From positions 1 through 51,150 of the forward strand of contig JARIGO010000001.1 in NCBI GenBank assembly GCA_029288805.1: a stretch of 51,150 nt of DNA, written 5' to 3'. A model generated the notes under the pieces. That model ran no database searches. It was not told the origin of the DNA and saw nothing but the letters and a program-made list of their open reading frames with translations. Position numbers and translations under genes: made by a program. Positions 1,163 to 4,701 of this stretch are shown here, piece after piece. The stretch is from Candidatus Nomurabacteria bacterium. GTDB taxonomy: Bacteria > Patescibacteriota > Minisyncoccia > Phycocordibacterales > UBA9973. Each line of letters starts with the position of its first letter. Position 1 is the first letter of the stretch.

Positions 1163-1328
1163 TTATTTTTAAGATTTTTTGCGGTTGTACAGGTCGTCAT
1201 GCTCAGAGACTTTCATTAAAGGCTCTATCAAAATTTTTCTTTACAATACATTTTTTTTATTTTGTTACCATTGAAAATGCTTGCCAACAATATGATGCAC
1301 CCCGACTTTTTTGTATACTAAGTGCATT

Positions 1329-2600
1329 ATGGCAGTAACCCTCATCAGAAAACGAGACGAATCAGTTGCTGATTTTGATCGTTCACGTATCGAAAACGCT
1401 GTTGCGAAGGCATATGCGGCTGAAGGTACGCCTATTGATGAGATTTCTCTATCTATACTGGGTGACCGTGTCATGGTGATACTGGAACACACCTACGACG
1501 AGAAAAACATTCCTACAGTTGAAAACATTCAGGACGTTGTTGAACGTGAGATTGCCCGCAAAGGGGACTTTGAAGTGGCAAGAGCATACATTCTGTATCG
1601 TGAAGAGCGAAACAAGGACCGTAAGCGAGACGTTTTCAAGAAAAGACTGTCTTTGAAGCCCTACGAATACCCGGAGCTCTATGAATATGTCAGTGCCATC
1701 CGCCATTCATACTGGATCCATACCGAGTTTAACTTTGTTGGCGATGTCCAGGACTTCAAGGTTAATGTTGATGAGAAAGAGCGCAATGTCATCCAAAACA
1801 CCATGCTTGCTATCGCGCAGATAGAGGTAGCAGTCAAGACATTTTGGGGAGACATTTATAAGAAAATGCCCAAACCGGAGGTTGGTGCAGTCGGCGCTAC
1901 GTTTGCTGAAAGTGAAGTGCGACACACTGACGCATATGCTCACTTGCTCGAAATACTGGGGCTCAATGATGCCTTCAATAAAATAGACGAGATACCTGCT
2001 CTTATAAAGCGAGTGCACTATTTAGAACGAGCCTTATCCAATGCCAAAAGTGAGGATAACCGAGACTATAGCCAATCCATTCTCTTGTTCTCATTGTTTA
2101 CCGAGCACGTGTCACTCTTCTCACAGTTCCTGATAATGATGTCGTTTAACAAGCACAAGAACTTGTTCAAGGGCATATCAAATGCAGTCGAGGCAACTTC
2201 AAAGGAGGAACAGATACACGGCTTGTTTGGAATCGATATCATAAAGATAGTTAAGGAAGAGCATCCAGACTGGTTTGACGAAGAGTTCGAGGAACAAGTC
2301 ATCAAGATGTGTGAGGAAGCCTTCGAGTCAGAACAACAGGTAGTAGAATGGATATTTGAAAAAGGGGAAATCGAATTCATATCCAAAGCCGCTGTCATAG
2401 AGTTCATCAAGCAACGATTCAATAACTCACTGCACAGTATCGGTATCAAGAAAATCTTCACTACCGATGAGCAGCTTCTCAAAGAGTCAGATTGGTTTTA
2501 TGACGAAGTTATTGCCACAAAACACGGAGACTTCTTCAACAAAAAGTCGATTAACTACAACAAAAAGAACAAGAGCATTACGAGCGATGACCTCTTTTAA
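1329..2600 (+). CDS. nrdB: Ribonucleotide reductase beta subunit with N-terminal ATP-cone (class Id/NrdBi-like)
   Basis: N-terminus IRKRDESVADFDRSRIENAV...TVENIQDVVE...ARAYILYR is an ATP-cone. Ferritin-like ligands IAQIEVAVKTFW, EVRHTDAY, EHVSLFSQF, EEQIHG. Start moved from 1311 to ATG 1329 because TATACT lies at 1314-1319. Confidence 0.95.
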   Translation: MAVTLIRKRDESVADFDRSRIENAVAKAYAAEGTPIDEISLSILGDRVMVILEHTYDEKNIPTVENIQDVVEREIARKGDFEVARAYILYREERNKDRKRDVFKKRLSLKPYEYPELYEYVSAIRHSYWIHTEFNFVGDVQDFKVNVDEKERNVIQNTMLAIAQIEVAVKTFWGDIYKKMPKPEVGAVGATFAESEVRHTDAYAHLLEILGLNDAFNKIDEIPALIKRVHYLERALSNAKSEDNRDYSQSILLFSLFTEHVSLFSQFLIMMSFNKHKNLFKGISNAVEATSKEEQIHGLFGIDIIKIVKEEHPDWFDEEFEEQVIKMCEEAFESEQQVVEWIFEKGEIEFISKAAVIEFIKQRFNNSLHSIGIKKIFTTDEQLLKESDWFYDEVIATKHGDFFNKKSINYNKKNKSITSDDLF

Positions 2601-2622
2601 TAAAGAATTAAATTAAGAACAT

Positions 2623-4347
2623 ATGTATTGGTTAAATGAAACAAGTAGAAAATTTTTAGCAAAAGGCTACCTCGTGGGAGACATGACTGCCGAAGAACGC
2701 ATCCGTGAGATTGCGGAAATTGCAGAGCGTCATCTTAACAAGCCTGGCTTTGCTGACAAGTTCTACGATTATATGTCTCGTGGCTTTTATTCTCTTGCGT
2801 CTCCTGTATGGTCAAACTACGGTATGGAACGAGGTCTTCCAATCAGTTGTTTTGGTAGTTATGTTGCCGATGATATGTCTCGCATTCTCTACACCCATGC
2901 TGAGGTTGGCATGATGACCAAGTATGGTGGTGGGACATCAGCGTTCTTTGGGGGCTTGCGTCCTCGCGGTTCCATCATTAAAGATAATGGCCATTCTTCA
3001 GGTGCTGTGCACTTCATGGAACTCTTTGACAATCTTATTAACATCGTTAGTCAGGGTTCAGTGCGTCGTGGTCACGTTGCGCCGTATCTGCCGCTTGAAC
3101 ATGGTGATATTGAAGAATTTTTAAATATTGGTAAGGAAGGTCACCCAATTCAGGAGTCTACCTACGCTGTTACTGTAGGTGACAAATGGCTTAAGGAAAT
3201 GGTTGATGGAGACCAGGACAAGCGTCGCATCTGGGCAAAGGTTATTCAACGCCGAACAGAAATCGGATACCCGTACATTCTTTTTAGTGATACCGTGAAC
3301 AACAATACTGTTGACGTATACAAGGACAAAGGCATGAGAATTAATAACAGTAATCTCTGTTCTGAGATCTGTCTTCCTAACGGCGATGATATTTCATTCG
3401 TATGCTGTCTTTCTTCAATCAATCTCCGTCACTACCATGAATGGAAGGATACTGATGCAGTTGAAACACTTGCTATGTTCCTCGATACCGTTATTACCGA
3501 TTTCGTAAATCGTCTAGAAAGTTTCCGTGATAGCGCCGATGAACAGAAGCGTTCAGCATTCTACTTCATGCAGCGTGCACATAAATTTGCAAAAGAGCAC
3601 CGCGCCCTCGGGCTTGGTGTACTTGGATGGCATACATTCCTCCAGGAAAGTAACATTGCATTCGATAGTGCTGAAGCTGCAGTTTTGAATGAGGAAATAT
3701 TCTCATTGATCAAAGATCGTGCGTACAAGGCATCTGAAGACATGGCCAAGGAATATGGTGAACCAGAAGTATTGAAAGGTTATGGTCGCCGAAATACTAC
3801 CTTGCTTGCTGTTGCTCCTACAACATCATCTGCATTCATCTTGGGACAGGTATCTCAAAGTATTGAACCATTGATGTCTAACGCATTCGTTAAGGACGTG
3901 GACAAGATGAAGGTTACTATCAAGAATCCAACGCTCGAAGCCTTACTTGAAGAAAAGGGCATGAATACTACAGACACCTGGAACAGTATTCGTGACAATG
4001 ACGGCTCAGTGCAGCACCTTGATGGATTGACCGCTCATGAAAAGAGCGTATTCCGTACCTTTAGTGAAATTGACCAGAAGGCTATCATCGAACAGGCGGC
4101 AACACGTCAGAAGTACATTGACCAGGCACAGTCACTCAACATCATGATTGACCCAACAATGCCGGTAAAGGAATTGAATGCACTCTACCTTTACGCATGG
4201 GAGAAGGGAATCAAGACACTCTACTACCAGCACAGTATGAACGCCGCACAGCAATTCGGCCGAAAGAAGATGCAGGAGATAGAAACAAAGAAACCTAAGG
4301 TAGTCATTGTTGCACAAGAGACAGAATGTCTAACCTGTGAAGCATAA
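2623..4347 (+). CDS. nrdA: Ribonucleotide reductase alpha subunit, short form without ATP-cone
   Basis: GLPISCF, NSNLCSEI (catalytic N-x-C-x-E), LLAVAPTTSS, KTLYY, and C-terminal CLTC redox pair. Confidence 0.96.
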   Translation: MYWLNETSRKFLAKGYLVGDMTAEERIREIAEIAERHLNKPGFADKFYDYMSRGFYSLASPVWSNYGMERGLPISCFGSYVADDMSRILYTHAEVGMMTKYGGGTSAFFGGLRPRGSIIKDNGHSSGAVHFMELFDNLINIVSQGSVRRGHVAPYLPLEHGDIEEFLNIGKEGHPIQESTYAVTVGDKWLKEMVDGDQDKRRIWAKVIQRRTEIGYPYILFSDTVNNNTVDVYKDKGMRINNSNLCSEICLPNGDDISFVCCLSSINLRHYHEWKDTDAVETLAMFLDTVITDFVNRLESFRDSADEQKRSAFYFMQRAHKFAKEHRALGLGVLGWHTFLQESNIAFDSAEAAVLNEEIFSLIKDRAYKASEDMAKEYGEPEVLKGYGRRNTTLLAVAPTTSSAFILGQVSQSIEPLMSNAFVKDVDKMKVTIKNPTLEALLEEKGMNTTDTWNSIRDNDGSVQHLDGLTAHEKSVFRTFSEIDQKAIIEQAATRQKYIDQAQSLNIMIDPTMPVKELNALYLYAWEKGIKTLYYQHSMNAAQQFGRKKMQEIETKKPKVVIVAQETECLTCEA

Positions 4348-4356
4348 ATAGAAAAA

Positions 4357-4384
4357 GAAAAAACACCTTTACAGGTGTTTTTTC
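4357..4384. terminator. Bidirectional intrinsic terminator (nrdA / rnpB)
   Basis: GAAAAAACACCT-TTAC-AGGTGTTTTTTC, a perfect 12-bp stem between convergent genes. Confidence 0.85.
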
Positions 4385-4389
4385 ATTAT

Positions 4390-4658
4390 GTTGTACTCGT
4401 AAGCCGAATTCTGTTTTAGTGATCATTTATCTGTGATGCTTGTTACCAAGCACCTATAGCAGCACTTCCTTCGATTGCTCTCGGGACACGGCCTTGCACA
4501 CGGATAGACATTTAGCCGTTTCACTCCCACTAAAGGGATTCGTCACTGTTCGCAGTCCTATGCTTGCGCACGATGGGCATTACCCACTATCTTTTCGCTT
4601 TTTAACGAAGTGTGTTCGGACTTTCCTCTGCATGAATGCAGCGATCATTCGGTACAAC
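4390..4658 (-). ncRNA. rnpB: RNase P RNA, compact (about 269 nt)
   Basis: Minus strand reads GAGGAAAGUCCGAAC near the 5' end and AAAACAGAAUUCGGCUUAC near the 3' end. P1 is GUUGUAC/GUACAAC, P3 is CUGC/GCAG, and the P18-like hairpin is GGUGCUUG-GUAA-CAAGCAUC. Promoter TTGTGC (4687-4692)...TATACT (4665-4670). Confidence 0.93.
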
Positions 4659-4701
4659 AAGGCTAGTATACGGATATTATGAGATAGCACAAGCTTAATT
4701 A

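Follow-up and report, generated by a model that had tools for sequence, protein, structure and literature searches.

The first 51,150 nucleotides of contig JARIGO010000001.1 (forward strand), from the Candidatus Nomurabacteria bacterium assembly GCA_029288805.1, contain two co-directional genes, nrdB and nrdA, which together occupy exactly positions 1329–4347; this whole stretch of DNA is referred to here as the window. We conclude that the pair is very probably a functional class Id ribonucleotide reductase (RNR) operon, switched by an ATP-cone on the beta subunit, and that it stands as the sole RNR found both in a non-respiring genome and across nearly the whole of the genus to which that genome belongs. 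The enzyme type itself is already known, a cone-on-beta class Id enzyme having been described structurally and biochemically between 2018 and 2021 (PMC5794259, PMC6754362, PMC8350387). With the type solved and characterized, the finding is ordinary as stated and its value is contextual; the interest here is that such an enzyme is the sole RNR found in almost all of a non-respiring genus of the Candidate Phyla Radiation (CPR). The gene pair is made up as follows.

1329–2600, + strand: nrdB, from the ATG at 1329 to the stop at 2600, encoding 423 residues; NrdBi with an N-terminal ATP-cone
1344–1613, + strand: ATP-cone, NrdB residues 6–95 (PF03477, E 3.4e-19, 85 of 88 profile positions covered)
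1647–2468, + strand: ferritin-like metal-binding core, NrdB residues 107–380, holding the metal-ligand counterparts together with K170, W173, Y203 and T290
2556–2597, + strand: NrdB C-terminal tail, with Tyr410 and the ending ...SITSDDLF
2623–4347, + strand: nrdA, encoding 574 residues; NrdAi, the class Id catalytic subunit, without an ATP-cone

The first-pass annotation of this DNA had proposed a class Id-type RNR in which NrdB carries an ATP-cone at its N terminus and NrdA lacks one. Pfam agrees, with exact coordinates: in NrdB the cone is followed by a Ribonuc_red_sm domain (residues 107–380, E 1.7e-58), and NrdA consists of the RNR all-alpha and barrel domains only, with no match to PF03477. 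In a search of the PDB, NrdB matched the cone-bearing NrdB of Leeuwenhoekiella blandensis over its full length (5OLK, E 4e-169), the cone-less construct of the same protein (6SF4, E 7e-154) and the class Id beta subunit of Flavobacterium johnsoniae (6CWO, 6CWP and 6CWQ, E 1e-87 to 3e-95, the last value being that of 6CWO), whereas the best matches outside class Id had E values of 4e-25 or weaker and class Ia/Ic NrdBs of 1e-18 or weaker. With 767 bits, NrdA exceeds the 602-bit cut-off of the NCBIfam equivalog TIGR02510 ('NrdE-prime'), and it matches the two solved class Id alpha subunits (6DQX, E 1e-212; 6DQW, E 9e-180). The structural matches of both proteins, as judged by these scores, are far past chance, and in our own trees the window NrdB groups with NrdBi sequences. 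At the level of sequence, the PDB, Pfam, TIGR02510 and the signature residues agree, and they fully support the assignment of nrdB-nrdA as a class Id (NrdAi/NrdBi) RNR whose ATP-cone lies on beta.

These signature residues were followed through an alignment of 88 NrdB sequences (45 from CPR, 35 from Flavobacteriales, three from phages and five cone-less; 83 cone-bearing). The putative metal ligands E166, E196, H199, E259, E294 and H297 are invariant in all 88, as are the helix-B lysine K170, the NrdBi-specific W173, the radical-position Tyr (Y203) and its partner Thr (T290). Published work on the enzymes of L. blandensis and Facklamia names the ligands as Glu170, Glu200, His203, Glu263, Glu298 and His301, together with the helix-B Lys174, Trp177, Tyr207 and the partner Thr294 (PMC6754362, PMC5794259), and these ten L. 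blandensis residues correspond, in that order, to the ten of the window just listed. In class Id enzymes the conserved Thr keeps the radical-position Tyr off the metal (PMC5794259, PMC6754362). The first ligand position is occupied by Glu (E166), which lies with K170 and W173 in the motif IAQIEVAVKTFW beginning at residue 162, and E196, H199 and Y203 lie in the motif ESEVRHTDAY beginning at residue 194; the glutamate, the nearby lysine and the tyrosine of EVRHTDAY that had been pointed out on first reading are all present. Y410 in the C-terminal tail is likewise invariant in the 88 sequences, and the tail, which is near-identical to that of L. blandensis, is presumably the alpha-binding and radical-transfer tail, by analogy with class I enzymes in general. 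The sole Cys in NrdB is C328, the cone being without cysteine.

The active-site residues of NrdA are also present (C76 and N244/C246/E248, with a neighbouring Cys pair C261/C262), together with the Tyr534–Tyr535 pair and a C-terminal C569-x-x-C572 pair. A tail-less NrdA was considered for the window and ruled out by the presence of C569-x-x-C572. This CxxC is kept throughout the genus, loss of the C-terminal Cys pair in the sampled NrdAs being restricted to one clade (L056, L057, L059, L066, L073, L076, L077). Between the last conserved helix and the CxxC (residues ~546–567, window 4296–4344), members of the genus have a Lys-rich linker that is ~18 residues longer than in Flavobacteriales.

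The ATP-cone on NrdB is the only one in the genome. At least 95% of the 83 cone-bearing relatives share its residues K8, R9, E65, Q68, E72, Y90, R91 and R98, the last of which is the counterpart of L. blandensis Arg102, a residue in contact with the gamma-phosphates of dATP. In the L. blandensis enzyme dATP induces a beta4 tetramer through cone helices alpha3 and alpha4 (PMC5794259). Counterparts of the tetramer interface are retained in the window at D69, E72, I88, R91 and R98, with two conservative changes (L. blandensis K89 to R85 and I93 to L89) and one to a smaller residue (M80 to A76). Read from these residues, the interface is compatible with a dATP-driven tetramer, but this is not proof of one.

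The window is contig 7 of a 26-contig draft genome of 680,668 bp, estimated to be 96% complete, whose nearest relatives are metagenome-assembled genomes (MAGs) of Paceibacteria/Nomurabacteria. In this genome the RNR barrel PF02867 is found in nrdA and nowhere else, and a check for NrdD (PF13597) and for an RTPR-type class II RNR (NrdJ; TIGR02505), as suggested in the first-pass annotation, found neither. The earlier remark that no nrdI lies adjacent extends to the genome as a whole, in which NrdI (PF07972) has no match. Control by NrdR was considered and ruled out, the genome's only ATP-cone being that of NrdB. Searches of the genome for terminal oxidases found no cytochrome bd and no heme-copper oxidase (COX1), and PF00085 thioredoxin was not found. 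Present are an Fe/Mn superoxide dismutase of 196 residues, an Nramp-family transporter that is a candidate Mn importer, a YruB-family glutaredoxin-like protein of 77 residues with a CHYC motif, and a TrxB/AhpF-like flavoprotein reductase. We infer that these four genes are linked to the RNR; the set fits a cell that meets oxygen without respiring it and is equipped for a Mn-dependent, thiol-recycled RNR. The earlier suggestion of an O2/superoxide-dependent RNR in a presumed fermentative CPR cell is plausible and gains strength from these searches, fitting the genome in its lack of an oxidase and of any other RNR and in its possession of superoxide dismutase. The dependence itself would follow from the class of the enzyme: a class Id RNR is the sole one found, and de novo synthesis of deoxynucleoside triphosphates would therefore need an O2-derived oxidant and manganese.

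Full-length cone-NrdB is present in 23 of the 24 sampled species of the genus, at 68–87% identity, in nine of 200 other genomes of the order and in four of 400 genomes across the phylum (Patescibacteria). The protein database contains at least 8000 relatives, the nearest of which are all cone-bearing and derive from Paceibacterota/Nomurabacteria MAGs; the record titles of the closest refer to lakes, rivers, groundwater effluent and activated sludge. NrdD is found in none of 40 congeners (none of 41 genus genomes with that of the window included), and among the same 40 an RTPR-like class II enzyme occurs only in G1329, which is itself without NrdAi. In the sister genus (G221/G135) there is a 768-residue protein with an ATP-cone and an RTPR-like class II body, and similar cone-bearing proteins of ~770 residues are the usual match in other families of the order. 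Each genome tends to show a single RNR type, class Id taking the position that class II holds in relatives, and the distribution in the genus fits one essential RNR per genome. No paper linking class Id RNR with Patescibacteria or CPR was found in the library searched.

A number of side observations accompany this survey. The ATP-cone RTPR-like enzyme of G1329 and G221/G135 (with L093:805-3111, - strand) has a size range of 768–797 residues, scores 285 bits against the TIGR02505 cut-off of 340 and gives hardly any match to PF02867. Within the order this appears to be the usual RNR, perhaps a divergent subgroup of class II. In another genome of the same order, a cone-nrdB (L140:1001-2269; G219:C1:13380-14645) contains four in-frame TGA codons and stops at TAA. 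The TGA codons align with the conserved Trp residues W129, W173, W341 and W389 of the window NrdB, and the downstream nrdA likewise reads through TGA at a conserved Trp, which looks either like a Patescibacteria MAG in which TGA is recoded as Trp or like a contig of foreign origin. Finally, four loci labelled Woesearchaeota, Methanosarcinales, Elulimicrobium and Gammaproteobacteria (L058, L065, L059 and L072) carry CPR-type nrdBA, the three whose genomes were sized having ~0.8 Mb; these may be wrong labels or further transfers.

The operon is flanked by the following features.

1–525, + strand: 3' end of a 16S rRNA gene (Rfam RF00177, 279 bits)
710–1162, + strand: DUF192 gene directly upstream of nrdB (Pfam PF02643, E 4e-27), syntenic in relatives
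1308–1318, + strand: promoter-like box TTTTGTATACT, with the -10 hexamer TATACT at 1313–1318, 10 nt 5' of the nrdB ATG
4357–4384, bidirectional: terminator-like hairpin with a 12-bp stem, ending nrdA (+) and abutting the rnpB 3' end (-)
4384–4660, - strand: RNase P RNA gene (rnpB), directly downstream of nrdA and convergent with it (Rfam RF00010, 109 bits)

Beyond rnpB lies secA, and the window contig also carries dnaE. The block 16S-DUF192-nrdB-nrdA-rnpB-secA is conserved through the genus, with synteny in more than 35 related MAGs, and its 16S-DUF192-nrdBA part is found also in lineages whose NrdB is only 62–68% identical (L050-L052, L067). The GC content of nrdB (0.432) and nrdA (0.441) is close to that of the genome (0.437). 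Conserved synteny and a GC content at the genome average therefore mark the operon as a long-standing resident of this clade, passed on by vertical descent. Many related contigs break inside the 16S gene upstream of nrdBA (L009-L013, L018, L022, L023, L027, L028, L033-L035), with the result that nrdB often lies within 1–2 kb of a contig end; breaks at this place would also account for the congener G001, which seems to be without any RNR.

Between the box TTTTGTATACT and the nrdB ATG there is no Shine-Dalgarno sequence, and a consensus scan found no classical -35/-10 pair at nrdB. The same box lies ~8–10 nt before the ATG in about one third of the genus relatives and ~40–50 nt before it in most others. 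It appears from its sequence and position to be an extended -10-type promoter giving a leaderless or near-leaderless mRNA. With the -10 box 10 nt from the ATG there is no room for a riboswitch or a long leader; a riboswitch or other structured leader was accordingly rejected for the window nrdB, no Rfam match at the gathering threshold being found between 526 and 4383. Also rejected was TTG 1311 as the start of nrdB, since relatives begin at the ATG and the -10-like box would fall inside such an extension. About 20 nt 5' of the -10 box, at window 1280–1300, is the motif (G)ATAATATGATG, common to the two closest relatives (L005, L009) and replaced by ATTCTTGTTTGCC in other members of the genus; possible roles are those of an operator or of a substitute for the -35 element.

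What is directly observed is how the genes are built, which families they belong to, which residues are conserved, and in which genomic settings and lineages the operon occurs; our current working hypothesis goes beyond this to the metal, the oxidant, the dATP-driven oligomerization, the reductant and a physiological need for oxygen. The operon, which lacks both NrdR and a riboswitch, appears to be transcribed from the extended -10-type promoter as a leaderless mRNA. NrdB would presumably assemble a dimanganese cofactor that is oxidized to Mn2(IV,III) by superoxide or, less efficiently, by H2O2, and radical transfer would begin from this cofactor and not from a tyrosyl radical, by a path leading from Y410 in the NrdB tail through Y534/Y535 of NrdA to the active-site Cys246. 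Binding of ATP to the NrdB cone would favour the active alpha2beta2 form, and dATP would probably drive formation of an inactive beta tetramer, as in L. blandensis. The NrdA C-terminal CxxC would probably be re-reduced by the YruB-family glutaredoxin-like protein together with the TrxB-like reductase. In nearly all of the genus, the class Id operon occupies the place that a B12-type class II enzyme with an ATP-cone has in the sister genus.

Several points weigh against this scheme. The metal, the oxidant and the response to dATP are extrapolated from enzymes that are ~34% (cone) and 68% (core) identical, and the changes corresponding to M80 to A and K89 to R in L. blandensis suggest that the inhibited oligomer could differ. 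The glutaredoxin-like protein is put forward as reductant only tentatively, because PF00085 thioredoxin was not found; in a 26-contig draft that is 96% complete, a thioredoxin or a second RNR could lie in a gap. Nor is it evident where superoxide would come from in a cell that lacks both NrdI and a respiratory chain.

It is against this background that other explanations must be considered. A conventional class Ia-like reductase of the diferric-tyrosyl kind, with a resemblance to class Id that is confined to sequence, is highly improbable. The retention of Y203 at the radical position would suit such an enzyme, NCBIfam gives NrdB only generic 'subunit beta' models that all fall below their cut-offs, and phage homologues are routinely annotated as 'class Ia'. 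However, every one of the top structural matches is a class Id NrdB, the five entries 5OLK, 6SF4, 6CWO, 6CWP and 6CWQ having E values of 1e-87 or better against the 1e-18 or weaker of class Ia/Ic NrdBs noted above; Glu occupies the first ligand position, there is no variation in the helix-B Lys or in the Tyr-restraining Thr (PMC6754362), and NrdA is of the minimal NrdAi type. A different objection accepts the enzyme as class Id and holds that the cells are independent of it, and of oxygen, because deoxynucleotides come from a host or the environment or because another RNR is encoded in the unassembled 4% of the genome. CPR bacteria are widely regarded as episymbionts that scavenge nucleotides, which favours this idea, as does the draft state of the genome; the congener G001, showing no RNR at 95% completeness, illustrates that such genes can be missed. 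We nevertheless consider it unlikely, since the operon is intact, with all catalytic residues and at 75–87% identity, in 23 of 24 congeners, NrdD is lacking in 41 genus genomes and class II occurs in only one genome, itself without class Id. In addition, no dNK-family deoxynucleoside kinase was found in six genus genomes including this one, other salvage routes not having been searched.

The origin of the operon requires separate comment, as the first-pass annotation had suggested that it was possibly acquired from Bacteroidota. NrdBi is found in 155 of 400 sampled Flavobacteriales species, where ~57 sequences are cone-bearing (53–64% identity to the window NrdB) and ~85 are cone-less (41–48%), as against the four in 400 for Patescibacteria. 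Recent horizontal transfer out of Flavobacteriales (Bacteroidota), or misbinning of a flavobacterial contig, would agree with this imbalance, with the flavobacterial affinity of the closest characterized relatives and with the NrdB-only tree, which, when rooted on the cone-less sequences, places the root of the cone-bearing clade among Flavobacteriales, these forming a basal grade and CPR plus phage a single clade (Shimodaira–Hasegawa-like approximate likelihood ratio test 87). The concatenated NrdB+NrdA tree (985 columns) instead gives a Flavobacteriales clade with 100% support and CPR as a basal polytomy. CPR and phages are united in the best tree recovered, the likelihood being slightly better when they are held as one clade (lnL +3.08, approximately unbiased test p 0.58), and this test favours reciprocal clades. 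The window contig moreover carries the 16S 3' end, rnpB, secA and dnaE, the synteny in the related MAGs reaches down to lineages at 62–68% identity, GC content is at the genome average, and Flavobacteriales are only 58–64% identical. A recent import, contradicted by GC content and synteny, is therefore improbable, slightly more so than independence of the cells from the enzyme. For acquisition from Bacteroidota at any date, we draw no conclusion on the direction of transfer, because the rooting shifts with the data set and the outgroup branch is very long (3.5–4.25 substitutions per site); the data neither establish the suggestion nor rule it out, and an ancient exchange could have run either way. 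In our reading of the trees, the CPR and flavobacterial cone-bearing enzymes would be sister groups sharing one fusion event, from which a donor cannot be named. Flavobacteriales, having both cone-less and cone-bearing forms, are a reasonable cradle, although this is an argument from parsimony only.

Returning to the class Id operon as sole RNR, it is tempting to speculate on how the genus came to rely on it. We lean slightly towards the view that the genus has swapped a B12-dependent, O2-independent class II enzyme for a superoxide-activated Mn RNR as its only route to DNA precursors, with obligate dependence on oxidant and manganese. If so, cells described as 'fermentative' would need an oxygen-derived oxidant and Mn uptake to replicate, with neither NrdI nor a respiratory chain to supply superoxide and with superoxide dismutase competing for it, and the requirement would define an oxic niche for the genus. 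It would also contradict a 2018 claim that cone-NrdB always coexists with another RNR, in that a cone-on-beta class Id enzyme can serve as the only RNR of a cell. RNR class might then be used as a marker of lifestyle, separating this oxic-water genus of Paceibacteria from its B12-using relatives. The question raised is where a dimanganese RNR obtains its oxidant when respiratory chain and NrdI are both lacking, and two small, easily expressed proteins make it testable.

Among characterized systems, the closest is the NrdAi/NrdBi pair of L. blandensis (5OLK, 6SF4/6SF5). Its NrdB has the same order of cone, short linker, ferritin-like core and C-terminal tail, its NrdA is likewise cone-less, and the gene order is again nrdB-nrdA; it has the same metal ligands and the same Lys, Trp, Tyr and Thr, and the tetramer interface is conserved at most of its residues. 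The differences are that the window cone is only ~34% identical to flavobacterial cones, that Met80 and Lys89 of the interface are Ala and Arg in the window, and that the NrdA linker before the CxxC is ~18 residues longer. Unlike L. blandensis, the host of the window is a 0.68-Mb non-respiring CPR bacterium, and L. blandensis has a second RNR (class II) where none was found in the window genome. According to the 2018 paper, every species with cone-NrdB also encodes other RNRs (PMC5794259); the sole-RNR status seen in the window and in nearly the whole genus stands as a difference from that statement.

The class Id enzyme of F. johnsoniae (6CWO/6CWP/6CWQ; alpha subunit 6DQW), along with the 574-residue alpha subunit 6DQX, shares with the window the NrdBi core and the minimal NrdAi, but its beta subunit is without an ATP-cone and hence has no overall-activity switch, whereas the window NrdB has the cone. 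The cone-less class Id outgroup has the same ligand set and helix-B lysine as the window; cone-less Bacteroidia NrdBi are 40–48% identical to the window protein and are separated from the cone-bearing clade by a very long branch. Full-length ATP-cone-NrdBi is also encoded, again in the order nrdB-nrdA, by Herelleviridae phages of Staphylococcus/Mammaliicoccus (such as Stau2, Romulus and CF5), at 56–59% identity. Unlike the window operon, some of these phages have nrdA split by HNH/homing endonuclease genes and some have adjoining thioredoxin genes. Their NrdBi/NrdAi (L134, L135, L137) lie on a long branch and group with CPR, not with Flavobacteriales.

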